The notes under the pieces: model-generated
The model's database searches: none
Seen by the model: only the letters and a program-made list of their open reading frames with translations
What the model was told of the DNA's origin: nothing
Virus record (IMG/VR): IMGVR_UViG_3300032312_000606
Coordinates: 1 to 44,635 of that record
DNA: 44,635 nucleotides
Strand: one strand, 5' to 3'
Source: a virus
Lineage: Duplodnaviria > Caudoviricetes
Position numbers and translations under genes: made by a program
Shown: piece after piece, positions 1,168-37,308 of the stretch
Layout of the letters: each line of letters begins with the position of its first letter
Position numbering within the stretch: position 1 is the stretch's first letter

Positions 1168-2094
1168 TTATCCCCTATTAGCTTTGTCGTAAGCAATGAA
1201 CTGCTTGATCATTCGGTTGCGCTTCTCAACGTCATCCCACATGCCCGCCTCTTTGATAGCTCGAACACGCTCGGGACTGAGAACGTAGCCATTACCGCTA
1301 CGCCCGCCCACCGATTCACGAACAGATCCCGTTACCACGCTTCGGGGTCTCCTTTGAGGACGCTCGTCCTGCGATTGATTGTATCTATGGGGCAAACGCT
1401 TCTGCAAGCGATTATCAAGTTCTTCCCAATAATCTTCTGTCGCGGGGTTCCAGCCCTCCTGCGTCAGCTTGGCGTCGATAATCTTTGCAATCTGCGTGTC
1501 TTCGTCACCGGCCTCTGGGTCATACCAAGAATTAGCCTCTAGCCAATCATTGGCCAGACGCTTAACCTTCGGATTTACCGAGGCTTCTCGTGTCGTTGAT
1601 TCTTCGGCCTGCTGCCTAATGCCGTGCAACGATTCAAGGCGCTTACGCGACTCTGCCTCAATTTCTCTGGCGCGAATAAAAGCATCGCCATTTGAGTTAT
1701 CAGTGGCCTCGCGCATTTTGGTCATGGCGTATTGCAGACGCAGTTGCTCGTCTTCAATTGCCTTCTCCAAACGCGCCATATCAGAGCTATGAGCACGCTG
1801 CTCTACAACAGCTAGACGTCCCATCAACTCCTGATTCTGGCGTTGCAGGGCCTCGAGACGGGCATCTTTCTCGGCATTCCGCTGGCGCACATAATCCTTC
1901 TTGGCGCGTCGACGGGCACGCTTTGCAGCCCTTACCTCTTCGTCATCATCAGGATGGTCGTCATCTGCGGAGCCACCCTCTGCCATCTGACTCGGGACTT
2001 CTTCACCCTCCGGGAGTTCTATTACCGCAGAACCGTCAGCCGCCTCTTCAACAAGCTCAACGTCCTGCATCTTGTCTTCATTATCAGCACTCAT
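1168..2094 (-). CDS. Putative capsid scaffolding protein
   Basis: Acidic N-terminus, long coiled coil, basic C-terminal helix; position between portal and capsid genes. Confidence 0.6.
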   Translation of the reverse strand: MSADNEDKMQDVELVEEAADGSAVIELPEGEEVPSQMAEGGSADDDHPDDDEEVRAAKRARRRAKKDYVRQRNAEKDARLEALQRQNQELMGRLAVVEQRAHSSDMARLEKAIEDEQLRLQYAMTKMREATDNSNGDAFIRAREIEAESRKRLESLHGIRQQAEESTTREASVNPKVKRLANDWLEANSWYDPEAGDEDTQIAKIIDAKLTQEGWNPATEDYWEELDNRLQKRLPHRYNQSQDERPQRRPRSVVTGSVRESVGGRSGNGYVLSPERVRAIKEAGMWDDVEKRNRMIKQFIAYDKANRG

Positions 2095-2528
2095 ACGAAG
2101 GCCCTCATAGCAAGCGGATCACCTGTCACCGTGGCGATGATTTCGTGATCGTTGAGAATCATGAACATGGCCGGGTCTTCTGCATCGTCATCCCCGGGCA
2201 CCTTGACTTCCCATCTGTCGCCACCCCACTTCGGGACGCGCAGATAGTCGCCAACCTCACACCAAGAACCCTCCGGCCATGGCTGCATCGTGTCGCGATG
2301 CTTGAATGCCAAAGGCCCGATGGCAACTACCTTGGCCACCATGTTGTTCCACTTCTCGGTTTCCTTGGTCTCTTCAACCAAGATGATTCCCGCTTGCCCA
2401 ACCTTCTTCTTCGTTCGACGCAACTGCACCAGAATGCGTCCGCCGAGAGGTCTAGCACCGGGGTCTACGCTCGGAAATGCCCAAGCCAACTCGGCTTCGT
2501 TAAAAGCCTCCGGGTTACCTGTCGTCAT
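2091..2528 (-). CDS. groES: GroES/Cpn10-like co-chaperonin
   Basis: RPLGGRILV, AGIILVEET, AKVVAIGP, EVGDYLRVPKWGG and ILNDHEIIATV follow the Cpn10 pattern. Confidence 0.85.
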   Translation of the reverse strand: MTTGNPEAFNEAELAWAFPSVDPGARPLGGRILVQLRRTKKKVGQAGIILVEETKETEKWNNMVAKVVAIGPLAFKHRDTMQPWPEGSWCEVGDYLRVPKWGGDRWEVKVPGDDDAEDPAMFMILNDHEIIATVTGDPLAMRAFV

Positions 2529-2700: not shown

Positions 2701-2846
2701 TTCTTCTTCGCTTGGCTCAATGCACCTCCCTGTTGTTGACTGCCGCCCTTCGGCTGCAGGCTAGTACCGTCCAGCTTCTCGCCCATGGCAATGCGCTTAT
2801 GCATCGGCACATTGATCCCTTTCTGCTCTTGGTCACTGGTAGCCAA
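2697..2846 (-). CDS. 49-aa small protein (absent from ORF track)
   Basis: TTG start after a GGGAGGG RBS; MATSDQEQKGINVPMHKRIAMGEKLDGTSLQPKGGSQQQGGALSQAKKK. Fills the gap and its stop overlaps the next start (GTGA). Confidence 0.6.
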   Translation of the reverse strand: MATSDQEQKGINVPMHKRIAMGEKLDGTSLQPKGGSQQQGGALSQAKKK

Positions 2847-5409
2847 TTGGCCCTCCCTGTTTCATGGTGATGTCCAATACAGCCTTCTCGCCATCCTGCT
2901 TCAACTTGGCGGCATCGCGGGTCAACCGGGCTGTCTCGATGCGCTCCTTCATCTCCTGATCGCCCATAGCAATGGCCAATCGGAGTTGGAGTTCTTCCAT
3001 GTCCTTCTGGTGGTCCTGCTGCATCTTCTGCATCTGGATCTGGATGTCTGCCGCGGCTTCCTGCTCCTTGAGAGCCATCTCAGCCTGATCGCGGGCAGCG
3101 CGACGTTGGGTCTCTGCCATGCTGGTCTGCAGGACAACCTCGCCATCCGGCGTAAGTTGGGGCTTCGGCTTGAACTGCTCCATCTGCTTAACCATCTGCT
3201 GGATGACAGGCATGATGCCGGCCAGCGTCTGCTGGGCGTCCATGTCGACGTGCTGAGAGGCAGCGCCAAACATCTTGTCGACCATGCCCGGGTCCTGCAG
3301 CAGTTCGTACTCTTCCATCTTGCGACCCAGAGACTTCTCGACGTACCCATTCATGCGGTTCAGGTACCAGAGCACAATGTGCTGCTTAATGTGCTCGACC
3401 GCTTTGGGCAGGAATCCCGGGGCGATAAACGGGTTGCCACCGAATATCGGGTTCTTTGCGAAGTCTAGGTGCGCTTGAATGTGACCCAGATGGTCCTGCT
3501 CTGGGTAGGCAAAGGCTGCCTGACCGATAGCCATGGCCACATTCTCGTTGGCAGCGTCCATCTTGGTCGGCGGAGGCGTATCAACCATCAGTTCATTGAT
3601 ACCCGGCACCTTGATCTGCTTTAGGAACCGCTCAATCACCACTTTGCGGTTAAACAGGTCGGGATTCTTCTCCATGATGGCCATGACGGCTTGCGTCTGC
3701 GCCATACGCTGCGTTTCCGAGAAGATGTGCGGATCCGACACCGGAATGACGTCGGTAATGCGGGCAAAATCTTCTCGAGTGATGTCCAGATCCTCAACAA
3801 CCTCGCCGCGGCGCATGTCATCGAGGTACCAGCGGTTGATTCGGCTCAAAATCCGCAGAACTCGACCCTGTGACTCATGCAAACGGGCATGAATGGCAGA
3901 GAACACCGCTGCACCCTGCTCAATCATCGCCTGCGTAGTGCCTACAGGCGCGTTTGACGTCACGTCAGCGATCTTTTCCTCTGCGGTGGTCACCACACCC
4001 TTGGCAGCGTTCGTCAGCCAGCCCAGAAGCTCCATGAGAACCGGGCTCGGCGGGTTGAACGGCATCGGCATGGCAATCTTGCGCACGTCATCGACGCCCG
4101 GGGCTGCCTCAATCTCGGAAACCTGCGTCACTTCGACCTGCTGGGACTGACCGGACACCTTGGCGCCCTTCAGTTTCAGCATGGTCGCTGCGTTATTGAT
4201 GTGAGCCGAGTCCATCAGGGCACGCAAAGCACCCGTCAGAGCCGCTGAGAGGCCGCCTATGAGGTGCGGGAGACCCACGGCATATGCACCCCGCCACGGA
4301 ATGAATTTGAACTCAACAATCCAGTCCAATTTGGTCTGGGTTTCGTCGCCTTCTTCCCAGTTGCGGTACAAACCGACGACTTCCGTCTCTAGTTCGTCAA
4401 TCATGAGGATGTACGGGGCCAATTCGCCCTTCGTATACGGGTCATCCTCAAGCTCTAGCCATGTGTATACATGGTAGATACGGCGCACACCGTCTTCGTT
4501 GCTACCAGCACTCCGCCCCTCGACCTTATCGGTCGCCTTTTGGGGGCCGGTCGGCTCAGGATCCATGGTGGCGCGGATGAATGACGTGTCCCGGTACAGG
4601 CCAGAGTCGATCCGGCGCTTGAATTCGTACTCAGAGATGTCGTCAACTTCGGTAATGCGCTGCGCGGTGTAGAAGTTAGCCGCGGAGAAGGGCAGCAGCA
4701 CGTTGTCGATGGGCAGAAACTGCGCACAGGGGCGCTGCTTACGCTCGTCGTACCAGATCTTCATGTACTGAGAACCACCCAGCGGCAATTGAGTGAGCAT
4801 CTGCTCCTCTTCGTCGCGGAATTCCTCAATCTGCTCCGTCAACTGCCAGTTCATGAACTCCGACTTGCGCTCTGCAGAGTCGGTTTTTTCCTGAGTGACG
4901 TCGCCAAGGATCTTGGTGCGGGTCGGACCATCAGGCGGGAACAGTTCCTTAATCGCTCTGGACGCAAAATCCACGCACGCTTCGGCCATAACCGGGTGGA
5001 CAACCTTGCTGGCACCCTGAAAGTTAGCTCCACCGGGGGCGTCATTACCCAAACCGGTGCGGCGGATGCCGTCTTCGTACTGCTTGTCGCGCTCCTTGCG
5101 GGCTTCCTTGTCCTTCTCGGCCAGTTCGATGTACCGCAGAGCCAGCTTTTGGACGTCGAAGTTGTCAATCCTGTCGGAGTCAGCAAGGTTCTCATAGAAG
5201 TCTTCAGACTCCATGGGGCCCTTGGTGTCTAGCTTGACCACTACAGAGCCATCCGGAAGCTCTTCAAGCTCCGAATCGTCCAGTTCTACGTCGACCTCCA
5301 TGCCTTCTTCAACCTCCGGAGCGCCTTCTGCCCCTTCAGGTTGGGCATCCATGGGGATACCCTCAACAAAGCGGTCGAACTCAGGATCAATCGGGAATTG
5401 TTCAGCCAT
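2833..5409 (-). CDS. Portal protein (P22-like, with long C-terminal coiled-coil barrel)
   Basis: 858 aa; HPVMAEACVDF..RA.KELFP, MLTQLPLGGSQYMK, GVVTTAEEK, APVGTTQAMIEQG; Gln-rich helical tail; lies downstream of terminase. Confidence 0.85.
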   Translation of the reverse strand: MAEQFPIDPEFDRFVEGIPMDAQPEGAEGAPEVEEGMEVDVELDDSELEELPDGSVVVKLDTKGPMESEDFYENLADSDRIDNFDVQKLALRYIELAEKDKEARKERDKQYEDGIRRTGLGNDAPGGANFQGASKVVHPVMAEACVDFASRAIKELFPPDGPTRTKILGDVTQEKTDSAERKSEFMNWQLTEQIEEFRDEEEQMLTQLPLGGSQYMKIWYDERKQRPCAQFLPIDNVLLPFSAANFYTAQRITEVDDISEYEFKRRIDSGLYRDTSFIRATMDPEPTGPQKATDKVEGRSAGSNEDGVRRIYHVYTWLELEDDPYTKGELAPYILMIDELETEVVGLYRNWEEGDETQTKLDWIVEFKFIPWRGAYAVGLPHLIGGLSAALTGALRALMDSAHINNAATMLKLKGAKVSGQSQQVEVTQVSEIEAAPGVDDVRKIAMPMPFNPPSPVLMELLGWLTNAAKGVVTTAEEKIADVTSNAPVGTTQAMIEQGAAVFSAIHARLHESQGRVLRILSRINRWYLDDMRRGEVVEDLDITREDFARITDVIPVSDPHIFSETQRMAQTQAVMAIMEKNPDLFNRKVVIERFLKQIKVPGINELMVDTPPPTKMDAANENVAMAIGQAAFAYPEQDHLGHIQAHLDFAKNPIFGGNPFIAPGFLPKAVEHIKQHIVLWYLNRMNGYVEKSLGRKMEEYELLQDPGMVDKMFGAASQHVDMDAQQTLAGIMPVIQQMVKQMEQFKPKPQLTPDGEVVLQTSMAETQRRAARDQAEMALKEQEAAADIQIQMQKMQQDHQKDMEELQLRLAIAMGDQEMKERIETARLTRDAAKLKQDGEKAVLDITMKQGGPIGYQ

Positions 5410-8400
5410 TTTTTGACCTCTTCTTCATCTTCTTGACCGGTCCACCGGCCTTGAAACCTTCGCGTATCAGATGGCGAATGTATGCGTCACTAAACTCTTG
5501 ACTCGGCAAGCCCTCACCCTTCACGCCAAGAGCCAAATCGTAGTACCCGGGGCCCTGCCGCTCTGGGTTCATCTCTTTGAACCTTCTGTGCCAGTCAGGC
5601 AGGAACACTTCCGTCGGGGTAGGCATCACGTTGTAGCCCAAGTCCTCACCCTTCATCAGCACCGGGAAACCCGGGTGAAGGTCCGGACGGTACATGAACT
5701 CTTTCTCTAGACTGAACAGGCGCGGGCCAGCAGCAAACGTCGGCACGTCACCACCATGCTCCGGGTGTAGCAAGCCGGGTTCCGTCTCAGCCTTCAGGAT
5801 GTCCGTCGGACGGAAGATCACACCCTTGCCGCTCTTCTCTCCGCCAAGGGATACACCGCCCTTACTCGGCGGGATACCCTGACCCATCATGATGTCTGCC
5901 AGTGCAGCACGCTTCTCAAACGTGTCTGCCTGCTTCCAGATGCCGGGGTCGCGGATGTCTGCACCCTCACCGAAGGTCAGAGCCAAGTTCTTGTTGATCT
6001 TCGCTTCCAACTCCGGCGAGAGCTTGCCTTCCTTCATGGCAGCTCTGAACTCCCGCTTAAGCTTGTCAAACACGATCGGGTTGGTCTTCAGTTGGGTGGC
6101 CGACCCAAGCATCGTCGTCCACGCCGTCTCCGGGGTCGACAGGTTTGCCAGACGTGCAGCAGTAGTCGCTTCACCGACGCCCCACACCTTGCCGGCATAG
6201 TTGGGGTCCACAGCACTGAGGGCAGAGAACGATGCACCACCGATGTTGCCGCCGCCTACCCGGGTGCGGTCTGCCTGCGTGGTGACAGTCTTCTTGAAGC
6301 CCTTCTCCATCAGTTGGCCAAAGGCTTCGGATGGCTTTACTTGCGATTGCGACTTGATGTACTTGGCAGCCTCACGGCCAGCAGCAGCACGTCCAGCAGC
6401 ATCCATGTCTCCCTTGAATGCCTCTTCGATGAGACTGGCGGCCTTCTTGACCATGCCAGCCTTTGATACCGTGCCTCCACCAGCGTATCCACGCATGGCG
6501 CGTACCAAGTCATCATGGGTAGTTTTGTCGCCACCCACACGATCCCAGATGGTGTGATGCACCAGATGCTGATAGAACGGGTCAAGCGACGGGTCCAGAG
6601 CCATGTCTAGAGCGTTTTGACGCGCAGCCAGACGCGCCACAGCCTCCTCGCCACCCTCACCCTTGCCGCGCTTCATGAACTTGGCTGCTTCCTTGCCACC
6701 GCCTTCTGTGTTCAGGCGCAGTTGGCGGGCATCCAGCGTTGGAAAGTCACCGCGGCCAAGCATGGCGCCCATGAACCCGCTCTTGGCAGGGCCGATACCC
6801 GGCACCGACTGCGACAGTTCCCGGTAACGCTCGGGGCCACCCAGAATCATGGCAGGCACGTCCATCGAAGAGCCCGACAGGTTCTCTGCCGCCCAGCGCA
6901 TGTCATCCGCTAGAACATTCGGCATACCGAAGGGAGAGAACTTCTCTTGAAGGTCCTTCAGCACCCGGGGGTCAATCTCACCACGCTCTGCAGCGTCCAG
7001 ATACCGCTGGCCTTCCGGGGAGCCTAGCCACTCGGAGAATGCACCTTCCGGTCTTACACGCTCGTCAGTCTTCGGCAGTTTCATGCCGGTCTTGGTAGCA
7101 GATGCGTGCGACAGGCCACCACGGTTCACGCTTGACCGGGTGATGGTGTAAGCCTTGATCAGATCTCTCGCGCCGATGTCACCCTTCTGGGCACGCTTCA
7201 CCTGATCGGCCATGAAGTTGCCAAAGCCCTTCTGGATGTAGTCAGGCACCTCTGGTACGTTGACCGCCTCGGCCACCTCACCCATAGGCTTCCACTGCCA
7301 GTCAGCAATGTGCTTCGACTCAGGGTCTGCGTACTTCTGAATGTTGCCCTTGGCAGACGTCGCGCCCTCAACGGCGCCCTTGATCATCTTGACTATGCCG
7401 CCCTTAGCAAACTCAGGGATGCTTTTAGTGACATACCCACCGCGCTTCATGCCCTTGGGACCGAATTTGGGATCTGAGAAGTGCGGGTCCGGGGTGAACT
7501 CGTTGGTTTTTTTGAAACGCTCCAGTTCGTCTCGGGTGACATAACGCGGCATATTGTCTGGCAAAAATGCTATTCGCGGCCCATATCCAGCAGTCACATC
7601 GACCATGCCAATCTTGTCTAGGTCGTCGGTGACTTCCGTCCCGCTCTCACGGACATACCGCTGCAGGTAGGGCCAGTAGTCCTCATTGACCGGGCCGTTT
7701 CTTTTGCCCTTGATCTGGGTGATTATCCCCGGCTGAGTCTTTGTCCATTCCACATAACCGGGCATGGGTTGGTTAACCCATTTTCCAGTCTCATCTCGAT
7801 AACCAGCACTAGCGGCCACCATGCGCCTAAATTGCGGGTCCGCATAATCACCGGTTGACTCAAGAGTTGACATGCGCCTTTCCAACTCTGCGGCTTCTTC
7901 CGGCGATGCTGTCTTAAGCCACCTCTGTGGGTCTGCGCCTCGACCCGCCTTGCTAATTTCAACTGTTGCATGCGGCCTGTTCTTGGTATCGCGGAACGAC
8001 AGCACCTGAGCATCACCGCTCTTAATGGCTTCCCAGCCGCCATGGCCGTAGGACGAACTGCCCTCATGGGCAGCATCTTCAATCCAATCCGGGTGACTGC
8101 TGGGTGGCTCGTACCCTTCTACAGAGTGACCCATAATCTGGGACTCTTTCGAGAACTGACCGGGCTTGTCCAACTGGACCATACGATAGCCACCGAACTC
8201 ACGGTGCGGCGTCAGGTTGGCAGCAGACGTTGCCTCTGCTCTGGCCATCTGCGCCGCCTTCTCGGCGTCATACCGGGAGGTGCGCTTGACAGCGTCAGTC
8301 ACGCTCAACCGGCTCAAGTCTTCCGGCTTTAAGTCGCCGCGCCTCATGTCGCTGCGCAACACATCCATGATGTGGTTAAAGCCAAGGTTGCCCATGACTT

Positions 8401-11125
8401 GGTCTGAGTTCATCAACCCATACACCTGCGCACCCGGATCCACCTTGGATAGCCACGGGTTCTGCTCAATCACTTGGCGCGAGAAGTCAGGGTCTTGGCC
8501 AAAGTGTCTGGCCTCTTGCGCCTGCTTCGGCGTCAACCACGGATTCGGGGGCTCGGCCATCTGCCGTCCGGGCCTGAACGCAGCGGTGATGTTCTCACGC
8601 TCCGCGCCGGTAATCTTCGGCAGGTACTCCTCGCTGGCCAGTTTCCACGCGTCGATGTTCTTTATCTGACGGTCAGACAGGTTTTCCCACATCCGGCCAA
8701 AGTCGGACTTGGCAATACCAGTATGCGGGAACCCGGCTGCCGTTCTCCTCATTGCGGTATCTGACAGCAACCCTATGTCCTGCATCGGCATGTGCAGCGG
8801 GCTCATTTCATTGATGTTGTCCATGTCCTCGCGGACAGTGGCCATCTCGCCATCAATGGTGCGCATACGCGCCTGACGCCACGCATCAGGATCTCGCACC
8901 TCGGGCGGAACCGGGCCAGTCTCAATGGCCTGCCGCTTTGACTCCAATGTGTCCAGTCGGGCACGCTTCTCATCCAGCATGGCCGCACGTTTCGCTGGCC
9001 ACTCTTCTGCCAACTTGAGGATGGGGTCATCAGGCGTAGACATCTGCGTCCTGACGTAGTTGGACAACTGCTTGTCACGCCAGTTGATCAACGCCTTGTC
9101 ACGCGTCGCCCCCTCAGAACTGTCACTCATCATTAAGTTTTCGCCATGCCTCGGACGCAGCATCGGCCTGCCGGTATCTAGCCACTGGCCACCGGTGGGC
9201 TTCACTACAGCCATCCGGGGGTCCATGATGGCACCAGACTCCATGGCTGACTCTAGAGCGCCTCTGACGGCCTCTCCTGCAGCCGGAGCGGCCTTCTGGA
9301 TGCCACTCTTCACCGCACGGTATGCGGGCTTGGCCACTACAGCAGCAGCAGGCACTCCAGTGAGCACGGTGTCAATGGCAGCAGCAAGTTTTGCGTCCTC
9401 TAAATTGCCACGCAGGTATTCAGCGCCGGCTTCTGCGAATGGCACGCCAATAGAAGCAGGCACATCTAGCATCTGGGCCTGAATCTCACTGGGATCCAGC
9501 GGCTGCCTCGAACGAGTCAGACCAGCCATGCCGCGGCCTACGTTCTTGCCGATGGCGCCGCCTTCCGCATACTTTTCTTCGCTCTTCGAGCCATACCTCG
9601 GTTTCTTGCCCAGCACTAGCGGGCCAATCTGAATCACCTCTTCAGCGCCCAGAATCGGCTCCATGGTGCGACGATCGTAGAAGTACCCATGGCGCTCCGG
9701 GTCATACCCAATCTGCGCCCACTCCGGGTGGTCCAGATACTCCTTGGCGCGGGCGACTGCCTCTTCCTCTGTGATTGGGTTCCACTCACCCTGAATGCGT
9801 GCCCATGGACCCTTGGCGCTCTCGCCAGTGGCCACACGGAATGCCTGCTCAGGCGAGCCACTCATGGTCACGTTCTTCACCGACGACACCGGGCCATAGT
9901 GGGTTGGCATACCCTCGGGGTGGATGCTGTTGATCCACACCCCATGGTTCTGGTACGCGGGGATGTCTAGGCGCAGGCCAGTCTGAGTTCCGGCGGGGAT
10001 CTCTCCCGTCTTGCCGTACTTCTCTTTCTGCTTACCACGCAGAGCACGCATGGCATCTTCCTGCGTTGCTGGCTGAGGAACGAAGGCATAGGGCTCCACC
10101 GGCTTGAACCGCCGAACCATCTCCTCGTATTCAGCAGCAGTCAGTTCGCCACCCTTCAGCTTCTGCGCCGCCTCAGTCAACTGCGGCACACGCTTGGTGA
10201 CGTCCTTGTAATCCATGTCGATGCGGCTGACATTTGGCTCGTCCTCAACCATGGACTTGACTGCCTTGGCCGCCTTCTTGAGCATTCCGCCCTTCGACAT
10301 CATGACGGCGCCACCCTCCTTCTTAGTCAAGTCGGGCACAGACAAATCATACGTTCCGACATTGCCCACAGCAGACTTGATATTGGTTGGATCAAACACG
10401 CCAATCGTTACCGCTTCCTTTGTCGGCTTCTTGCCTTGCCCAAAACGCTCAAGCAACTTGACGCTGTCATATCCTGCGTCTTTAAGTCCCTTGATGATCA
10501 GATGATTGTCTAACAGCGAATACAGAGGAACCTTGTAGTTAAGCCGATCAATCTCAGAAGCCACCGGATCTATATCAGGCGCATATCCACCGCCCAATGA
10601 CTTGTTTAGTTCAACATCCCACTCTGCCAATTTGCGCACGTTATCCGGCGATACGTCCGCGCCTGCCTTTTCCAACAACTCCAAGCCAGACATTGCGGAT
10701 TGTGGAACCAAAGGACTTGATGCAGGCAGTTGCGTCAAATCCAATGGATTCTTGACGTTGGCATGAACCGGATAAACCGCCGACCCCTTCTTGGGCTTGC
10801 TGCCCATTGCTCGACGACCACCTGCCACAAACTGGTTGGCCAACTCTGGATCTTCAGAGAACCAGTATGTCGGCCTCATGGTCTTGAAGTAGGGAATGTC
10901 CTTGTCGGTTCCATGGTAAAGCCTCTGCTTTACTGCGCTGCCCTCAAGCATCTTCTCTAGGTTGGCCTTGCGCTCTGGGGCAGGCAGCACATCCTTGGCA
11001 ACCTGCATAGCCTTCTTGAGCAGCCCGCCCTTGGCCATGCGCTCTTCAATCATCTGGCGCAACTCGGGATTGCGCACCTTGGGCGCCCCGATAATCTCAT
11101 CAAAGATTTTGTCGGCGTTGCTCAC
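5402..11125 (-). CDS. Large polyvalent protein (ART-like, PcfJ-like, HhH-GPD glycosylase-like and two unassigned modules)
   Basis: 1907 aa between terL and portal. RLYHGT..WFS..VFDPTNIKSA (ART-like); MGHSVEGY..SFRD..PHATVEI..QIKGKRN (PcfJ-like); VPGIGPAKS..PTLD (HhH). Modules are separated by GG motifs. Confidence 0.75.
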   Translation of the reverse strand: MSNADKIFDEIIGAPKVRNPELRQMIEERMAKGGLLKKAMQVAKDVLPAPERKANLEKMLEGSAVKQRLYHGTDKDIPYFKTMRPTYWFSEDPELANQFVAGGRRAMGSKPKKGSAVYPVHANVKNPLDLTQLPASSPLVPQSAMSGLELLEKAGADVSPDNVRKLAEWDVELNKSLGGGYAPDIDPVASEIDRLNYKVPLYSLLDNHLIIKGLKDAGYDSVKLLERFGQGKKPTKEAVTIGVFDPTNIKSAVGNVGTYDLSVPDLTKKEGGAVMMSKGGMLKKAAKAVKSMVEDEPNVSRIDMDYKDVTKRVPQLTEAAQKLKGGELTAAEYEEMVRRFKPVEPYAFVPQPATQEDAMRALRGKQKEKYGKTGEIPAGTQTGLRLDIPAYQNHGVWINSIHPEGMPTHYGPVSSVKNVTMSGSPEQAFRVATGESAKGPWARIQGEWNPITEEEAVARAKEYLDHPEWAQIGYDPERHGYFYDRRTMEPILGAEEVIQIGPLVLGKKPRYGSKSEEKYAEGGAIGKNVGRGMAGLTRSRQPLDPSEIQAQMLDVPASIGVPFAEAGAEYLRGNLEDAKLAAAIDTVLTGVPAAAVVAKPAYRAVKSGIQKAAPAAGEAVRGALESAMESGAIMDPRMAVVKPTGGQWLDTGRPMLRPRHGENLMMSDSSEGATRDKALINWRDKQLSNYVRTQMSTPDDPILKLAEEWPAKRAAMLDEKRARLDTLESKRQAIETGPVPPEVRDPDAWRQARMRTIDGEMATVREDMDNINEMSPLHMPMQDIGLLSDTAMRRTAAGFPHTGIAKSDFGRMWENLSDRQIKNIDAWKLASEEYLPKITGAERENITAAFRPGRQMAEPPNPWLTPKQAQEARHFGQDPDFSRQVIEQNPWLSKVDPGAQVYGLMNSDQVMGNLGFNHIMDVLRSDMRRGDLKPEDLSRLSVTDAVKRTSRYDAEKAAQMARAEATSAANLTPHREFGGYRMVQLDKPGQFSKESQIMGHSVEGYEPPSSHPDWIEDAAHEGSSSYGHGGWEAIKSGDAQVLSFRDTKNRPHATVEISKAGRGADPQRWLKTASPEEAAELERRMSTLESTGDYADPQFRRMVAASAGYRDETGKWVNQPMPGYVEWTKTQPGIITQIKGKRNGPVNEDYWPYLQRYVRESGTEVTDDLDKIGMVDVTAGYGPRIAFLPDNMPRYVTRDELERFKKTNEFTPDPHFSDPKFGPKGMKRGGYVTKSIPEFAKGGIVKMIKGAVEGATSAKGNIQKYADPESKHIADWQWKPMGEVAEAVNVPEVPDYIQKGFGNFMADQVKRAQKGDIGARDLIKAYTITRSSVNRGGLSHASATKTGMKLPKTDERVRPEGAFSEWLGSPEGQRYLDAAERGEIDPRVLKDLQEKFSPFGMPNVLADDMRWAAENLSGSSMDVPAMILGGPERYRELSQSVPGIGPAKSGFMGAMLGRGDFPTLDARQLRLNTEGGGKEAAKFMKRGKGEGGEEAVARLAARQNALDMALDPSLDPFYQHLVHHTIWDRVGGDKTTHDDLVRAMRGYAGGGTVSKAGMVKKAASLIEEAFKGDMDAAGRAAAGREAAKYIKSQSQVKPSEAFGQLMEKGFKKTVTTQADRTRVGGGNIGGASFSALSAVDPNYAGKVWGVGEATTAARLANLSTPETAWTTMLGSATQLKTNPIVFDKLKREFRAAMKEGKLSPELEAKINKNLALTFGEGADIRDPGIWKQADTFEKRAALADIMMGQGIPPSKGGVSLGGEKSGKGVIFRPTDILKAETEPGLLHPEHGGDVPTFAAGPRLFSLEKEFMYRPDLHPGFPVLMKGEDLGYNVMPTPTEVFLPDWHRRFKEMNPERQGPGYYDLALGVKGEGLPSQEFSDAYIRHLIREGFKAGGPVKKMKKRSKNG

Positions 11126-11152
11126 AGAAGCCTCCGGCCAGTTTCGCGCATC

Positions 11153-12568
11153 TTATACAGCATAGGGATTTACCCGGCGAGGCATACCTGAATCAGCATA
11201 ATCGTCCTCGTCCCAGTCATCAGGCGGCGGCGGGTCAATCTCAAGCCAGCCACCATCACGCAAATATCTTAAGGCTTGGGTACAGGCGTCGACATAATCA
11301 TCGTGCGTCGACTCAGGGAACGAGCAGATCTGCGACACAAAGCCCTCTGCCCAGTCTCTGACATAACCCTTGCGCACCGTGCTCTCAGGGATCCACACCC
11401 GGCCTCGAGCGATGATGTTCGACACGATATTCAGACGCTGCACCTTGTCAGCACGCCCGGGGTTATATGCCCGCACCGGCAAGTGAGCACGCTGCAGATC
11501 CTGAATGAGACTGATGCCGGCAGACTTGTCTTCCACCAGTATCAGGTCGACACGCTTCCGCTCCTTACCCTCGCCGAAGACAGTCTCGTACTCGTCGATG
11601 ACCTTGGGTCGCAGGTCCGGGTACTGCAGGTGGTCTTGCCAGCAGTCGATGACCATGGCGGCCATGGGACCATCCAGCGGCTTGAACACGCCGAAGGTGA
11701 TGCAGGCAGTCGGGTCACCCGTCGTCTTCTCGGTGTATGCACAGTCGTATGACTGGATGATGTACTCGAACTTGGGGAACGGCTTGTCAGCAGGCCAGAG
11801 GCGGAACATGTCACGCTTGACGATGCCCGACTCCTCGGGGTCTATGATCTCGGCGTAGATCTCCTGCCGGCCTAGCTTCGTGCCCTCGTACTGCAGGATC
11901 TGCTTCTGGAAGTTCGCAGACAGGTTGGCGATGTTGTCGTAGGTCGACGCGGTCGTCACACAGACGTCGTCGCCGTCACGCCCGACCAGTTCGATGATCA
12001 GGTCCTTGGGGCGCGGCGTGGTCGTCGCCACGATCCTTGTGCGGGCTCCCAGACGCACGCTGAACATGATCTGGTCCCACGCTTCGTTCAGGTAGTCCCA
12101 TGCGGCCAACTCGTCTAGCCACGCTCCATGGAACTGTGGACCGCGGAACCGCTCTGGCTCCGACGCCGGGATGCCTTTGATCAGGCTCCCGTTGGTCAGC
12201 TTGATCTCATGGTATGCCCGGTTGTAGTCAGCGATCAGAGCCTGCGGGATGACGCTAATCAACCCTGAGTCACCCTCGAAGCAGGTGGCACGCACGTCAC
12301 TCGAGGTCGGAGCCCCCACGAGCCAACGGGTGTTGGGTTCTTTCCACGCCCACCATGAGATCTGCTCTGCCGCGGTTCTGGTCTTCCCCGCTCCCCGTCC
12401 TGCGAGAAGTAGCCAGATAGACCACCAGTCACCCTGCGGGACAATCTGGTGCTTGTGGGCGATTGTGAGCCACTTGGCACGCCATGCCCATGCGACCTGA
12501 TCCTCTGGCGGGAGCAGCGCAAACTTCTTGCGCGTCTCCGGGTCCTTGAGGATCTCCTCGACAGTCAT
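11153..12568 (-). CDS. terL: Terminase large subunit
   Basis: Walker A AGRGAGKT, Walker B AWLDE, motif III TTTP, RNase H-like nuclease SYDCA...HDDYVDA. Confidence 0.95.
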   Translation of the reverse strand: MTVEEILKDPETRKKFALLPPEDQVAWAWRAKWLTIAHKHQIVPQGDWWSIWLLLAGRGAGKTRTAAEQISWWAWKEPNTRWLVGAPTSSDVRATCFEGDSGLISVIPQALIADYNRAYHEIKLTNGSLIKGIPASEPERFRGPQFHGAWLDELAAWDYLNEAWDQIMFSVRLGARTRIVATTTPRPKDLIIELVGRDGDDVCVTTASTYDNIANLSANFQKQILQYEGTKLGRQEIYAEIIDPEESGIVKRDMFRLWPADKPFPKFEYIIQSYDCAYTEKTTGDPTACITFGVFKPLDGPMAAMVIDCWQDHLQYPDLRPKVIDEYETVFGEGKERKRVDLILVEDKSAGISLIQDLQRAHLPVRAYNPGRADKVQRLNIVSNIIARGRVWIPESTVRKGYVRDWAEGFVSQICSFPESTHDDYVDACTQALRYLRDGGWLEIDPPPPDDWDEDDYADSGMPRRVNPYAV

Positions 12569-16461: not shown

Positions 16462-16486
16462 GGGGAGGACTAGCCTCCCCTTTTTT
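16462..16486 (+). terminator. Intrinsic terminator (possibly bidirectional)
   Basis: GGGGAGG-ACTAG-CCTCCCC then T6 on the plus strand; A-tract on the other side. Confidence 0.65.
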
Positions 16487-31405: not shown

Positions 31406-34400
31406 TTACCTCCTACCCTTTTTGCTCAAATAACTGAGCGGCGATTTGGCTGGCGGGGGCAAGTCTTTTACCCCGGTTGATCTAGCACGATCTCTAATAG
31501 CGTGCATCATTTCGTACAGTTTATCGGAACCCGCCTTGGTTGAGCCATTTCCGAGAGCAGACACTACATCGGCAGGGATTACAAACTCACCGTCTGCCAG
31601 CATGGCCGGGATGTCATCAGATTGACCATCACCCATGCCTGTGACTGCATCACCGCGACGGTAGTCGATCCGAGGCTTGCCGGCTGCGTGGACAATGTTC
31701 AGGGCCCCGTGTGCATTATGACCATGCCTAGTGCCACCCTGAGCGTAGGCAGGCACGATGCCGCCAGAGCGGAATTGCATGGGCGCAAACATCGCTGGAG
31801 GTTCAGCAAATCCCAAATCAAAGGATTCGCCACCGCCCATACCTAGCGCATCTTCAATGCTGCCAGATTGACCGTAATTAAAGTAATTGGACACGGGAGC
31901 ACCTTGGGTTCTGGTTTGCGGTAATCCACCGGGCTGTTGAGCCGCTTGTGCGGCGGCTTGATTAGATTCCACCTCTTGCAAGAATGGCGCAAGAGCACTG
32001 ACAAACTTCCCGCCACCGGAAGTAGTAATCGGTCTAGTGGTGAATTCAGGATCCGGGATTATCGGCAGAGCCGCCAACGCAGCCGCAGCCATTCCAGCGG
32101 ACGGGGCAGGAGCCGGGGTAGGGGCCGGCGTCGGCGTTGGAGTCGGCGTCGGGGCTGTTGGTGGCGGCGGGGTTGCGGTGCCCGTGGTTGTATCAACACC
32201 ACCACCGCCAATGATTGTCTCGCCAGCGGGAGGCGGAGGCGTAATTATTGGAGGCGGAGTGATGTTTGTTGGAGGCGGCGTTACGTTTATTGGGGACGGC
32301 GTAATGTTTGTCGGCGTCGGGGTGACGTCGACTGGGGATGGCGTGATGTCCGTCGGTGATGGCGTCACATCTACTGGCGAAGGCGTAATGTCAGTAGGCG
32401 ACGGTGTTACGTCTACCGGGGGTGGAGTGATGTCAGTTGGCGGAGGAGTAACGTCGACCGGAGGAGGCGTGATATCTGTGGGCGGCGGAGTTACATCCAC
32501 AGGTGGTGGCGTGATATCCACCGGGGGTGGGGTCACGTCTACGGGGGGCGGTGTGATATCCGTGGGCGGAGGTGTTACATCCACTGGTGGCGGAGTGATA
32601 TCCGTCGGGGGAGGAGTTACATCTACCGGAGGAGGGGTAATGTCTGTAGGCGGGGGAGTGCCAGTAACAGGACTACTGGTCGGGGCCACAATCCGCGCAG
32701 CAATAGCATCGGCATTTTGTTGATCTATGCCGGCATTACGCAAGATGGATGACAGGGACAGCCTAAACGTATCAGGCCGAGCAGATCCTGACATTGCAGT
32801 CGTTACAAGACTGTTCCGGACTTCTGGGGCAATTGGCGTGTCACCAATAGCTTGGGTCACAGTTTTGCCAATTTCTTCTCTGGCAAACTCAGTGGCAATT
32901 TGATTTGCGGTGCTGGGAAGGTAGTTGTATGTCTCTACCAATTGCTGCGCAAACCGTTGCGTAGCGTTCTGCACGCTAGTTCCAGAGTTAACCGCACTGC
33001 GAAGAGACTGCGCAGCACTGTCTACATCAACGCCTCGAACATCAGTGTTAGTCAGCAGATTGCGTGCGCCGCCATAGGCTTCCACTCCGCCAGCAATTGT
33101 TGAGCCAGTGCCACCACCAATGATGGCGCCCCAAGTGGCGTTGTTGGCCACATCACTCCAGTTGATCGGGGCATTAGAGTTGATGGCTTGGACTAGAGCA
33201 GAGATACCACTCTCTTCCAAAGCCTCGTTAGTTGCATTGAGAGCACCTACACGACCGGTGGCATAACCTCTGGCAACAAGCTCCTGAGCCAGAGTTTGCT
33301 TAATAGCATTGCTGCTAGTAGCCACCTCCGTTGCCGGCTTCACCACAGCCTTGATAAGAGCCGTGCCGCCCGGGAGAGCAGCCAAAGAGCCGGTCACCCC
33401 ACCCGCTGCAGCACCACCGCGGAACGCACGGTCATTGGCCATCGACTGGGCCTGAGCTTCAGTAAGCTCACCACGCGCAACACGCGGGGCCAATTCCGAC
33501 ATGGCCTTGGAGTATTCACTGTTGTATGTAGCACCGGCTGACTCTGCAATCTCCATGACAACACCAGTTGTCACGCCGAATCTGGCGGCAATTGCGGGAG
33601 CCATAGACACCAATCCGGCCATGCCCCTTACGCCCAAGCCAGCGCCAAGGGTGGGCAGTTCCTGAAGGATCTCGGATGCAATGTTGAACGCCGCAAAGCG
33701 CGGATTGTCTGCAGCAAATCGAGCAACATACTCAGCAGTCTCTGCTACGCCGCTGACGTTTTTCAGCCCATCGTAGAATCGCTGCGCGTCGGCAGAGATT
33801 TCCCAAGGTCTGGTTTCGTCAGAGTATGCCTTGGCACTATTAGCAATCCGCGCCAGACCACTGTTCTGGTCGACCAGACCAGCCATGCTTGACATGCCGT
33901 AGATCCAATCGGCGCCATTCGCTAACGCATCGGCGGCAACGCCTTTGACAACCCCATACATGTCAGTGGGTCTGCCATCAGTTGAGAACAGCGCCCGCGG
34001 GTCAATGCCGGCTTCTGCCGCAATATCCACAGTCAGCAAGTCCGGGTCCCATGACTGAGTGACGGAAGGTCCAAATTCCCCGCCCTGCTCTGCTAACTCT
34101 CTGGCCCTTCGCATAGCAGAGCCGTACTCTTCAGGAATCATCAAATCAGCCAAGCCATACTTGGCCAGACCTTCGCGTTGGCGAACCACACCGGGGTCAT
34201 CAAGACGAACAAATTCGCCTTGGTCATACACATACTTAATGCCAGTATCCGGGTCTGCCAGAATTTCTGACGACGGGAAGTAGGTCGTCCTGCCACCGCT
34301 TGTAACGTCACCAAATGACGTGGTCTTGCCAATGACATTGGGCACGCCAGTCTCAAAGTAACTGACACCCGGGGTGGCAGTAGAGGTGCTGGCTTTAGCG

Positions 34401-37054
34401 GCAAAGTCCAGCCCGGTCATCTGCTTGATCTCGCCACCAACATACTTAAGGCCAGACCTAACAAGAGCACCACCGAAGGCACTTATTGGGTCTTGCCCAT
34501 TCCTGATGGCGTCTTGTGCGGCCTTGATTCCATTGTCCACAGCAGCCGTTGTTTTGGCATCCATGGGTGAATCTGGATCAATCCCAAGCTGCCTCTTAAT
34601 GGAATCGGGCTTTAGTAGGTTTGAATCTTGAATCCTGTCATTGGCAACCTCAAAACCTTCAGCCACAAGGTTATTGATAAATGCTTGTTTTGGATCTTGT
34701 CCGTTGATGGCAGCGATCGCTGCCTCGGAGGCAGCCCGCTCCAATGCAGATTTGGCGGTGTCACTTAAATTTTTAGGGACCGAAAGACCATTAAATGAAC
34801 CGGTTCCAAAGCCTTCTTCGCGCAGTTTTACTGGGCTCCAAGCCTCGACCAGATCAGATTTTTTTCCAAAAACCGAATCCTTAGCCGATGCTACCCACCG
34901 GTTAAGTTGCCCCTGAGCGCCCGCAGACAGGCCCTCGATAAACGATTGACTCAGATCTCCGGTGGCAGCAAGGTTGATTGCGAAACTGCTTGCGCCTCGC
35001 GCTATATCCGTGCGGAGTTCAGGGGGAAGACTCTTGAACCACTCTTGTTGTCCCAGTTGCGACGATATGGTGTTGCCAAGGTATGAGGCGGCCCCTGCGG
35101 TTAATCCAGAGGTTGCCGCGCCACTCAAAATCTTGCCAAAGTCAAACTCTCCGCCCGTAATAGCGGTTTTTAAGGTGTTAGTAACCGCGCTACCAACAGC
35201 AGCATTGATTGCCGTGTTGATGGCAATCTGTGCAGCAGTCATGCCAGCACCGCTGGTTGCTAGACCGGTGATTGCCCCACCGATGCCCGGGGCCAAGATG
35301 GCAGCGCCTATCCCCAGAATGATGCCGCCAATACCACCGAAGAACCCACCGTCGTCTGGTTTGGTATAAGACCAATTGGCGCCGGCAAACGAATAGGTGC
35401 CGTTGTCATTTTTGATGAAGTAGGCAGTGTGCCCGCCGGTCTCTTCTGCTTTCGTGGTGGCAGAGAACATCTTGTCGCTGCCAAGCACTGGCTTCAACTT
35501 GAAGCCAATCTCTTCTGCGGTCAGGTCCTTGCGGTCGAAGAACCCACCCACCTTCCGGTACATGGTCGAGGCGACCTTGCCCGCCATCTGCCGTTCCCAG
35601 CCAGACAGCGTGTCATCATTGATGGCATCGCTAAGTTTGGACAGCGAATTCAGGCTAAAGCCAATAGTCGTATCGCCAGACTTGTATCGCTGCGTCAGGC
35701 CATACTTTTCAGCAAAGTCTAGAGCCTGCTTTACGTCTGCATTGACCTTCTGTGCAGCCTCGTAATACGGGCTATCTTTGGTGATGGATGTGACATCAGA
35801 GTAAATTTGCCCCGATGGAGCCGAAGGCGGGGTATACCCGTCATCAATCATTGACTGCCAATCTTCGGCAGTGAACCCCATCTCTTCTGAATACGGGAGT
35901 TGCGCCAGTTCTTCCGGCGTCAAAGGACGACTGTTAGACAGGCGAAGATCCTGATAGCCGCCAGCAGCAAGTCGCGCCTTTTCGGTGTTGTATTCAGCCT
36001 TGTTTGCGTTTTTTTCACCAGTAACAACAAGACTGATTGTCTTGTTCTGGTTCGCCAACAATTCACTTCTTAGGCCAGAGATTGAGCCTACAAGACCTTT
36101 GCTCTGATCCTGCAGAGGCTTTAGTTGATTGTTGAGTTCAGCGAGTTTTGCTTTAACTTCTGGCGTGTACCCCGGGGAACCCTTTTTGGGCAGCGCATTG
36201 ATTTGCTCAACAATCGGGTCAATCTGCTTTTGCAGATCCGTTGATTGCTGAATTAGGTTTTTGTATTCTGTTTGACCAGTGATGAATTCGATCTGGCCCG
36301 TCAAATCATCGACGGTTGTTTGCTTTTTGCCAATTTCACCGGAAAGTGCAGATAGACGATCCTTTTGCTCCTGAGTTCTTTTGTTCTTCGGAATAGAATT
36401 TATTGAACTTTGCTCAGAAACAAGCGCATCAAGTTCGCCTTTGGCAGCGGTTCTTGCAGCGTTGAGAGGGTTAATGTCCGCGACATTGCTTAAAAAATCC
36501 TCTTGCAACTGAGTTGTAAGAAGACGCAACTCAGACTTTTGCGCTTGGCCAAGAGTCGAAAGATCAATCTTTTCGGCTTTTGCAATGCCTCTGTTTGCTT
36601 CATCTTGTTGGCGAAGCAGAGTTCCGAGACTTCCGGTGTATGCGGGCCCCAACACGCCCGTGGCGGCACCATTGCCATAAGAAATGGCAGTTCTTCCGCC
36701 AATAGCGTCAATTTGGTCGCTCAGATTTTGAAGTTGGGACATCTGAGCTTTTGTGCCGGAGTACCCACTAATTCCGCCATAAAAGCCAATGTTCTTCTTC
36801 ATCTGGCCTTGCAGAACATCCCGCTGTCGGTTCAAGTCTGCGAGGCGGGCCTTCTCCGCATCTACTTGGGTTTGCAAGTAGTCATAGACGACATCTCGCT
36901 GGCTGGCCGAATAGCCCTTCGGGTATCTAATCGTTCCTTTGTCATTGACCGGCTTGCCAAGAGCATTTGCCAAGTCTTGAGCAGACGCCTTGGGCTTATT
37001 GGCCGTAGTGCGGGCTTGAGCCAGTGTGATAATCGGGGAGGTCTGCTCTGCCAT
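31406..37054 (-). CDS. Giant virion/ejection protein with Pro-rich repeat and C-terminal GEFV domain
   Basis: About 1880 aa: coiled coil, Gly-rich hydrophobic segments, about 20 heptad repeats, YAQGG...DGQSDDIPAMLADGEFVIPADVV. Confidence 0.65.
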   Translation of the reverse strand: MAEQTSPIITLAQARTTANKPKASAQDLANALGKPVNDKGTIRYPKGYSASQRDVVYDYLQTQVDAEKARLADLNRQRDVLQGQMKKNIGFYGGISGYSGTKAQMSQLQNLSDQIDAIGGRTAISYGNGAATGVLGPAYTGSLGTLLRQQDEANRGIAKAEKIDLSTLGQAQKSELRLLTTQLQEDFLSNVADINPLNAARTAAKGELDALVSEQSSINSIPKNKRTQEQKDRLSALSGEIGKKQTTVDDLTGQIEFITGQTEYKNLIQQSTDLQKQIDPIVEQINALPKKGSPGYTPEVKAKLAELNNQLKPLQDQSKGLVGSISGLRSELLANQNKTISLVVTGEKNANKAEYNTEKARLAAGGYQDLRLSNSRPLTPEELAQLPYSEEMGFTAEDWQSMIDDGYTPPSAPSGQIYSDVTSITKDSPYYEAAQKVNADVKQALDFAEKYGLTQRYKSGDTTIGFSLNSLSKLSDAINDDTLSGWERQMAGKVASTMYRKVGGFFDRKDLTAEEIGFKLKPVLGSDKMFSATTKAEETGGHTAYFIKNDNGTYSFAGANWSYTKPDDGGFFGGIGGIILGIGAAILAPGIGGAITGLATSGAGMTAAQIAINTAINAAVGSAVTNTLKTAITGGEFDFGKILSGAATSGLTAGAASYLGNTISSQLGQQEWFKSLPPELRTDIARGASSFAINLAATGDLSQSFIEGLSAGAQGQLNRWVASAKDSVFGKKSDLVEAWSPVKLREEGFGTGSFNGLSVPKNLSDTAKSALERAASEAAIAAINGQDPKQAFINNLVAEGFEVANDRIQDSNLLKPDSIKRQLGIDPDSPMDAKTTAAVDNGIKAAQDAIRNGQDPISAFGGALVRSGLKYVGGEIKQMTGLDFAAKASTSTATPGVSYFETGVPNVIGKTTSFGDVTSGGRTTYFPSSEILADPDTGIKYVYDQGEFVRLDDPGVVRQREGLAKYGLADLMIPEEYGSAMRRARELAEQGGEFGPSVTQSWDPDLLTVDIAAEAGIDPRALFSTDGRPTDMYGVVKGVAADALANGADWIYGMSSMAGLVDQNSGLARIANSAKAYSDETRPWEISADAQRFYDGLKNVSGVAETAEYVARFAADNPRFAAFNIASEILQELPTLGAGLGVRGMAGLVSMAPAIAARFGVTTGVVMEIAESAGATYNSEYSKAMSELAPRVARGELTEAQAQSMANDRAFRGGAAAGGVTGSLAALPGGTALIKAVVKPATEVATSSNAIKQTLAQELVARGYATGRVGALNATNEALEESGISALVQAINSNAPINWSDVANNATWGAIIGGGTGSTIAGGVEAYGGARNLLTNTDVRGVDVDSAAQSLRSAVNSGTSVQNATQRFAQQLVETYNYLPSTANQIATEFAREEIGKTVTQAIGDTPIAPEVRNSLVTTAMSGSARPDTFRLSLSSILRNAGIDQQNADAIAARIVAPTSSPVTGTPPPTDITPPPVDVTPPPTDITPPPVDVTPPPTDITPPPVDVTPPPVDITPPPVDVTPPPTDITPPPVDVTPPPTDITPPPVDVTPSPTDITPSPVDVTPSPTDITPSPVDVTPTPTNITPSPINVTPPPTNITPPPIITPPPPAGETIIGGGGVDTTTGTATPPPPTAPTPTPTPTPAPTPAPAPSAGMAAAALAALPIIPDPEFTTRPITTSGGGKFVSALAPFLQEVESNQAAAQAAQQPGGLPQTRTQGAPVSNYFNYGQSGSIEDALGMGGGESFDLGFAEPPAMFAPMQFRSGGIVPAYAQGGTRHGHNAHGALNIVHAAGKPRIDYRRGDAVTGMGDGQSDDIPAMLADGEFVIPADVVSALGNGSTKAGSDKLYEMMHAIRDRARSTGVKDLPPPAKSPLSYLSKKGRR
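32229..32660 (-). repeat. Coding tandem repeat, 21 bp / 7 aa (TPPPTDI, TPPPVDV), about 20 units
   Basis: Visible in the translation; synonymous codons vary between units. Confidence 0.95.
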
Positions 37055-37056
37055 GT

Positions 37057-37308
37057 TTAGTCCGAATTGAATGTGCCAAGCAGGGCTGCCGCCCAATCAA
37101 ACCAGTTGGTGAATCCCTCTGGGGCCGGAGCAGCTTCGTTAGTGAAGATGTCAATCGCCAGCAAGCCTCGAGCCCACTGGGTCCAGTCTGTATCTGCCGT
37201 AGGAATGGATAGCTGCTGGGCTGCGTACTGCTCGACCATCAGGGCGCCCCACGACTCAAAGGTGTGGTACCGCGGATCGTAGATCAGTGCGTTAGTAACC
37301 ACGGACAT
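37057..37308 (-). CDS. Small tail-module protein
   Basis: Trp-rich; P.P.GF.NW.DWA; lies between nozzle and ejection genes. Confidence 0.65.
   Translation of the reverse strand: MSVVTNALIYDPRYHTFESWGALMVEQYAAQQLSIPTADTDWTQWARGLLAIDIFTNEAAPAPEGFTNWFDWAAALLGTFNSD

Follow-up and report, generated by a model that had tools for sequence, protein, structure and literature searches.

The window analysed here is the whole of IMG/VR record IMGVR_UViG_3300032312_000606, a 44.6-kb virus record (44,635 nucleotides) that covers part of a genome and contains no recognised capsid gene. Between its genes for the terminase large subunit (terL) and the portal protein lies a gene for a protein of 1907 amino acids (aa), in which a seven-residue motif, [MFYK]-x-x-G-G-x-[VIL], recurs; we refer to this motif as the tag. 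Judged from its sequence and those of its relatives, the gene consists of five modules that evolve separately, with a tag at the end of each (Table 1), and comparison of strains and relatives showed that modules are shuffled at the tags. The region from 5074 to 11409 is covered without difference by one contig of a sequencing run, which does not constitute independent support.

Tags and modules of the 1907-aa protein

The tag occurs eight times in the protein; in 2000 shuffled sequences it matched 0.38 times on average and never more than 4 times. All eight positions at which the sequence-only reading had noticed a GG motif were verified, and the other 20 of the 28 GG dipeptides in the protein are not tags. 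Because the pattern was composed after the motifs had been seen, the argument rests on the recurrence of the tag in relatives. The same reading had described a basic stretch after most of the motifs; such stretches exist, but under a strict test for K/A-richness they follow only two of the five joints here.

Module 1 scored 38 bits against the ART-PolyVal family (ART, ADP-ribosyltransferase) with the whole protein and 44.3 bits when searched alone, above the curated Pfam cut-off of 31.2, in agreement with its earlier description as ART-like. Candidates for the H-Y-D residues of the active site, picked out by eye rather than by structural alignment, are H71, T-Y-W-F at 86-89 and GYD at 218-220. 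For module 4, sequence searches of Pfam and the PDB gave nothing meaningful. Its structural model is of high predicted confidence (pLDDT 93.6), and the top five Foldseek matches were all OGG2-type glycosylases (probability 0.99-1.0, template-modelling score 0.51/0.68, E just 0.028), so the predicted fold agrees with the proposed helix-hairpin-helix (HhH) glycosylase. K1448 and D1465 are invariant in 49 sequences and would be the putative catalytic Lys of the HhH and the Asp that follows it. The modelled fold stops at the helix preceding the tag at residue 1547, where the confidence drops to 46; the supposition that the motifs lie outside folded domains is thus borne out, in a model, for this module.

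Module 3 is tentatively PcfJ-like. The 1907-aa protein gave no direct Pfam match to PcfJ (PF14284), but PcfJ matches above the cut-off in three relatives align to residues 881-1057. PcfJ was also the atlas lead for this module, with a score of 0.93 and a low recognition score. Modules 2 and 5 received no family from Pfam (whole-module match to PF25735, E 0.12), and several module-2 homologues bear the PF25735 match. From family and fold, the modules may be several anti-host enzymes, although the glycosylase-like module 4 could instead protect phage DNA.

Table 1. Positions in the window of the modules, tags and genes discussed in the text (res, residue)
Feature	Position	Strand	Remark
Polyvalent gene, 1907 aa, GTG start	5402..11125	-	Between terL and portal
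Module 1, ART-PolyVal, domain res 68-258	10322..11035	-	Pfam PF18760
Module 2, conserved family	9569..10297	-	Also in Roseobacter phages CRP-9 gp54, CRP-207 gp58
Module 3, 707 aa, PcfJ-like part res 881-1057	7448..9568	-	
Module 4, predicted HhH-GPD glycosylase fold; nearest structures are OGG2-type 8-oxoguanine glycosylases	6485..7408	-	
Module 5, conserved family	5453..6484	-	
Tag 1 MAKGGLL (res 30)	11018..11038	-	Then basic leader to near 10980
Tag doublet KKEGGAV (res 268) + MSKGGML (res 276)	10280..10324	-	
Tag YAEGGAI (res 519)	9551..9571	-	
Tag doublet MKRGGYV (res 1226) + FAKGGIV (res 1239)	7391..7450	-	
Tag YAGGGTV (res 1547)	6467..6487	-	Directly after last helix of module 4
C-terminal tag FKAGGPV (res 1891) + basic tail	5435..5455	-	
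Length-variable 1896-aa protein	31406..37096	-	Probably ejection-type, from its position
Tags FRSGGIV + YAQGGTR, then conserved ~70-aa end domain (SDDIPAML.DGEFV) of the 1896-aa protein	31451..31774	-	Candidate reader
Terminase large subunit	11153..12568	-	
Portal protein	2833..5409	-	
GroES-like co-chaperonin	2091..2528	-	
Scaffold-like protein	1168..2094	-	Label from position

Tags and module exchange in relatives

Eighty loci were retrieved by terminase similarity, and most of those with downstream sequence have a large, highly variable gene in the same place, tagged at intervals. Sought across these related genomes, the motif first noticed in a single protein thus recurs at the joints of the same hypervariable gene. 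The gene is divided in two in L048, L056 and L079/L080, where the first of the two pieces has a tag close to its end. In 30 relatives scanned, the repertoire was shuffled, and ART-PolyVal, LPD23, PcfJ and DUF7178 domains occurred at varying positions.

The tag stands at the ends of domains. It directly follows module 5 in 60 of 69 homologues, module 2 in 62 of 95 (strict pattern; about ten more end in Thr) and module 4 in 66 of 120. No more than three residues come after the tag in 17 of the 120 module-4 homologues; six of the 120 simply end, and three have no anchor. Among complete proteins of the interval, 28 of 33 carry a tag within their last 45 aa (27 of 30 when three unrelated L047 genes are left out). 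Because the tag is retained at the very end of single-domain proteins, it is not a linker. Residues 1, 2 and 7 of the tag are constrained while its glycine codons are synonymously mixed, and we read the tag as a protein-level signal of the module end. An untagged module 4 was found between the portal and scaffold-like genes of a different lineage (L409, L412), indicating that the module keeps its position in the head operon and that the tag is lineage-specific.

In the relatives, tags are often paired, eight residues apart, and doublets and triplets are common. The first tag of a pair starts with K, Y or F in 36 of 48 cases, and the second with M in 30 of 48. In 48 non-redundant proteins (from 67), 24 of the 71 internal joints are followed by a basic K/A-rich leader, compared with 2.4% of random windows. 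The make-up of the pairs and the leaders would fit fused genes that brought in an end tag and a start tag with its leader.

Comparison of closely related strains located the exchanges. Contigs from three other studies are ~95-97% identical to the window over terL, the leader and modules 2, 4 and 5, and have module 1 replaced. Identity ends at 10980, the end of the tag at residue 30 and its leader, and returns at 10315, inside the tag at residue 268; the 523 other bases that take the place of module 1 lie on a single contig in two runs, and a third run shows both ends. Most of module 3 is replaced as well, from 9182 to 7418; the breakpoint at 7418 was seen in strains from two of the three studies and is located between the tags at 1226 and 1239. 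At greater distance, the 91% identity of L001 to the window extends as far as 11036 (tag 30) and picks up again at 9559 (tag 519); the DNA homology of L001 and others begins or ends at 9553-9559, in the latter tag. Across the 48 non-redundant proteins, 41 of 134 internal alignment breakpoints, which are non-independent events, fall within 15 aa of a tag, compared with 9 expected and a maximum of 19 in 2000 draws. The order of modules also varies, with module 4 preceding module 2 in L370, the reverse of the order here. The strains and relatives therefore confirm the earlier suggestion that the motif is a junction at which modules are shuffled. Tags and leaders share 72-86% DNA identity over 29-47 nucleotides, which makes them a likely source of homology for the swaps; exact DNA repeats were rejected as the cause, the joints being merely alike to that degree.

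The strain breakpoint at 9182 (residue ~648) lies beside KPTGGQW, a non-canonical GG. Module 3 is probably composite, and it may consist of two units joined by a second kind of joint.

Some neighbouring proteins bear tags without being regular carriers. The portal protein here ends in a tag-like MKQGGPI (2845-2865, complementary strand), but a tag was present in only 5 of 21 relatives (6 by raw GG count, one of them spurious). The scaffold-like protein here has MAEGGSA (1966-1986, same strand), compared with a tag in 2 of 17 relatives. In Roseobacter phage CRP-9, each of three small proteins encoded upstream of the terminase (gp65-gp67, L161:3279-4743) has several tag-like GG motifs. In L047 (3126-6185), several genes that by eye resemble those of sugar-modifying enzymes lie between terL and the start of the large gene.

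Proposed loading and cutting of the tagged protein

Our preferred reading, to which we give a probability of about 0.5, is that the tag loads the protein into the phage head and is cut after its first residue. The terminal tags on stand-alone genes, the cut site in phage T5 and the head-operon position indirectly support the earlier proposal that the motif is a cleavage or capsid-loading signal. In the proposed mechanism, the tag would be the address by which the cargo protein is loaded into the head. Packaging is suggested by the fixed head-operon position together with the precedent of polyvalent proteins, for which packaging and processing have been proposed (PMC5512222). A cut between tag positions 1 and 2 would then release each module as an enzyme of its own, for ejection along with the DNA. 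The N-terminus so created would carry a basic K/A-rich leader and in this resemble the N-termini that some first modules have naturally. Because tags and leaders are similar at the DNA level, a newly acquired module would come with addresses at both ends. The weakest step of the mechanism is the reader of the tag, which may be the conserved end domain, flanked by tags, of the 1896-aa protein.

The bond at which the tag would be cut is suggested by T5 and by untagged homologues. In T5, mass spectrometry mapped a cut in the tape measure protein pb2 to the bond after R1127 (PMC10038345). The sequence at this site is FVPR/AEGGMM (the slash marks the cut), and the identical pentapeptide RAEGG is found in cargo tags. 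All of 10 T5-family sequences, the most distant of them 42% identical, have RAxGG. Among the untagged module-2 homologues, three stop precisely at the aromatic residue of tag position 1, where truncation at a contig end is possible, and three further ones end 1-2 residues past that position. The border between cargo and tag would thus fall at the same bond as the T5 cut. Lambda gpH has FATGG (733) and YATGG (778), on either side of a stretch with weak similarity to the candidate reader. Its cleavage yields a fragment of about 14 kDa ('residues ~690'); where the cut lies and what catalyses it were called unknown in 2025 (PMC12617516), and the tag predicts a site. Both the T5 and the lambda cuts occur during assembly, before infection (PMC10038345, PMC12617516). 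In T5 and lambda, one or two tags lie near the end of a tail protein, whereas here eight tags are found in head-operon cargo.

RAxGG and G-E-x-G-x-E are invariant also in a 42%-identical relative (L446). When T5 pb2 1128-1150 was compared with L446:280-543, the His of the zinc-carboxypeptidase-like motif proposed in the C-terminal part of pb2 (pb2C) was found to be Gln in this relative, which casts doubt on the motif as a conserved metal site. According to a title cited in papers on T5, the host is said to be involved in T5 tail-protein cleavage.

The protein that carries the candidate reader ranges from about 860 to 3260 aa in relatives and ends in two or three tags followed by a near-invariant domain of 70 aa. 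The end domain was present in 18 of 18 near-complete tag-bearing records, and in 21 of 21 records of the tag type compared with 0 of 4 from the untagged lineage, a contrast of little weight because those four are just 24-75% complete. At E<=0.001 it is matched by 13,924 cluster representatives. Its profile matches tape measure proteins right after a tag, namely JBD30 gp46 (E 0.007) and mycobacteriophage gp16 (8ZDO; E 1e-6); the matching stretch of JBD30 is a predicted hook of two helices and one hairpin, and a cut after it has been speculated (PMC11445458). In CRP-9 gp54 and CRP-207 gp58, module 2, tags and end domain form one polypeptide adjoining the portal. One Asp and one Glu of the end domain are invariant in 42 sequences. 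The structural model of the domain was poor (pLDDT 67, predicted template-modelling score 0.38), and with this low-confidence model no match was found in the PDB (Foldseek best E 4.9, VIA best Z 2.9) and only uncharacterised homologues in BFVD at E<=0.001. We regard this fold result as uninformative and not as evidence against a protease.

The end domain was found in just two bacterial-genome contigs. One of them, from a Limnohabitans metagenome-assembled genome, has an 82%-identical copy (L164) and may be mis-binned, so that the hint at Limnohabitans is too weak for a host call. The 1896-aa protein has a long Pro/Thr-rich repeat tract at residues ~1480-1680 (DITPPPVDVTPPP-like).

Several observations weigh against loading and cutting at the tag. 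A strict profile of 140 tags, from whose training R was excluded, left the T5 site outside the top six sites of pb2. Of 404 tags, just 11 have R as their first residue and just 3 have M as their seventh, pb2 has three [AK]xGG sites, and the T5 match extends over just five residues. The possible truncation of the three module-2 homologues that stop at position 1 belongs here as well. In lambda, a cut after F733 would release about 12.6 kDa, a loose fit to the observed fragment. The virion RNA polymerase of N4, itself a polyvalent protein, is packaged uncut (PMC5512222). A different tail, mostly Gly/Ala-rich and hydrophobic, follows module 4 in 45 of the 120 homologues. As for the breakpoints, 78 of the 134 have no tag within 40 aa, including 11 in tagless fragments, and one of the four strain-level breakpoints (9182) is away from a canonical tag. 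In a pairwise comparison the end domain matched lambda gpH only weakly (E 7e-4, probability 26%), and homology to the T5 flanks was not detected (E 0.29 and 0.53); it was accordingly dropped as a candidate homologue of the T5 hook or pb2C. Finally, the cultured Caulobacter phage GB2A, which has the entire head module in common with the window, keeps the end domain without a cargo gene. This indicates a core role for the domain and an accessory one for the cargo, and their co-occurrence therefore proves little.

In L405-L407, L410, L411, P0193 and P0211, the Gly/Ala-rich hydrophobic tail replaces the tag at the same place. It is possibly an alternative address in another phage lineage.

The tag could also be a docking peptide only, with the chain packaged and ejected whole, an alternative that we hold at well below even odds. 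It would bind a component inside the head, which could be the capsid wall, the portal crown or the 1896-aa protein with its end domain, and several tags would add avidity. This would suit the frequent doublets and triplets, the uncut N4 polymerase, the small size of the end domain, for which the low-confidence model gave no protease-like fold, and the single-module genes in which the tag is the last seven residues and a cut would trim almost nothing. On the other hand, the sole experimentally mapped terminus at a similar pentapeptide, that of T5, is a cut, the basic leaders that follow a joint's second tag look like free N-termini, and untagged homologues stop at tag position 1. It is improbable that the tag is a flexible linker that persists chiefly as a recombination cassette, with selection acting on DNA homology and no protein reader. 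The DNA identity of the joints and the mapping of swaps to tags are as such a cassette would have them, but the codons of the first Gly are mixed (GGC in 69 and GGT in 67 of 148), residues 1, 2 and 7 are constrained, and the tag also occurs in tape measure proteins, at the C-terminus of some portal proteins and in the end of the 1896-aa protein, which is not swapped.

A change in the time or agent of the cut, in which the chain is packaged whole and cut at its tags after ejection, or is cut by a host protease during assembly, seems very improbable. In favour of such a change, the protein has no HExxH or HExxxH motif, which ruled out an in-chain HExxH autoprotease, and no prohead protease was recognised among 26 scanned open reading frames (ORFs), in a window that is part of a genome and has no capsid gene. 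Against a late cut, the T5 and lambda cuts precede infection. Internal translation starts, of which the motif would be the imprint through ribosome-binding sites before the Met of second tags, have next to no credence left. The frequent Met at the start of a doublet's second tag, the spacing of 8 as the commonest and a mild enrichment of GGT at the first Gly (67/148 compared with a background of about 26%) point in their direction; however, GGA is the first Gly codon in only 6 of 148 tags, and a Shine-Dalgarno-like word precedes 6 of 51 tag ATGs compared with 128 of 1415 other internal ATGs. Internal starts were rejected because the Gly codons are mixed and such words are not enriched at tag-initial ATGs.

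Loading and cutting at the tag, our preferred reading, can be extended beyond this lineage, although the extended form is unlikely to hold as a whole. One undescribed processing system would be common to short- and long-tailed phages: a small domain on the ejection or tape measure protein would recognise x/[AK]-x-G-G-x-hydrophobic, cut after the first residue and be the catalyst of lambda gpH cleavage (predicted site after F733). Here it would have been co-opted as a code for loading and release, with the tag DNA as the swap point.

How phages choose the proteins that they carry into the host is understood for few systems. If our reading is true, a seven-residue tag that loads, and perhaps releases, arbitrary enzymes would explain how a widespread group of aquatic phages reshuffles the arsenal that it injects, and the tag would be a simple handle for loading proteins into phage heads. 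The tag profile also marks module boundaries in many unannotated giant phage proteins.

Related systems and neighbouring genes

In phage T4, a capsid-targeting sequence marks the internal proteins and Alt, and gp21 is the prohead protease. The T4 address is N-terminal on separate genes and is cut off after Glu by this dedicated protease inside the head, and the cargo reaches the host at infection. The tag is similar in being a short address on unrelated cargo, an ADP-ribosyltransferase included; unlike the T4 address, it ends modules, recurs within one chain and doubles as a swap point. By analogy, the 1907-aa protein likely works like the targeted and trimmed internal proteins of T4 without belonging to the T4 system. 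T4 Alt is packaged and injected (PMC5512222).

In terms of its sequence and context, the 1907-aa protein is a polyvalent protein, with disparate domains, a shuffled repertoire and a phage virion context. Like the described polyvalent proteins (PMC5512222), it combines unlike domains in a single polypeptide; ART-PolyVal is present here, and LPD23 occurs in relatives. It is also encoded by a portal-terminase phage among virion genes (terL and portal). It differs from those polyvalent proteins whose processing is ascribed to HExxH metallopeptidases (PMC5512222) in having no HExxH; this domain is found in a 36% subset of the family and is not a family-wide requirement (PMC5512222). The joint tag does not appear in the PMC5512222 passages on these proteins, and 'glycine' is absent from the main text of that paper. 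The available text of the crAss001 paper contains no 'cleav' or 'proteol' wording (PMC10172136). A literature search in which coverage of subscription journals was thin yielded neither a paper that describes the tag nor a virion proteome of a relative.

CRP-9 gp54 and CRP-207 gp58, annotated as hypothetical, share module 2, the tags and the end domain with the window. In contrast to the arrangement here, they fuse cargo with the end domain. Caulobacter phage GB2A, of the proposed Riverwalkvirus (PMC11053796), shares terL (44%), portal (47%), GroES (55%) and the end domain with its tag. It has no cargo gene, and just a tRNA-Val gene (L447:42590-42663) lies between terL and portal.

A match to an SU10-type adaptor and the lack of a tail tube match among the 26 scanned ORFs suggest a short-tailed phage. 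Elsewhere in the window, a gene resembling DNA-repair exonucleases lies on the opposite strand (13912-15093), and a C5 DNA methyltransferase gene carries a long insert (16486-18189). The GroES-like co-chaperonin gene comes immediately after the portal gene and is kept in GB2A; an annotated GroES is also present in HTVC027P.

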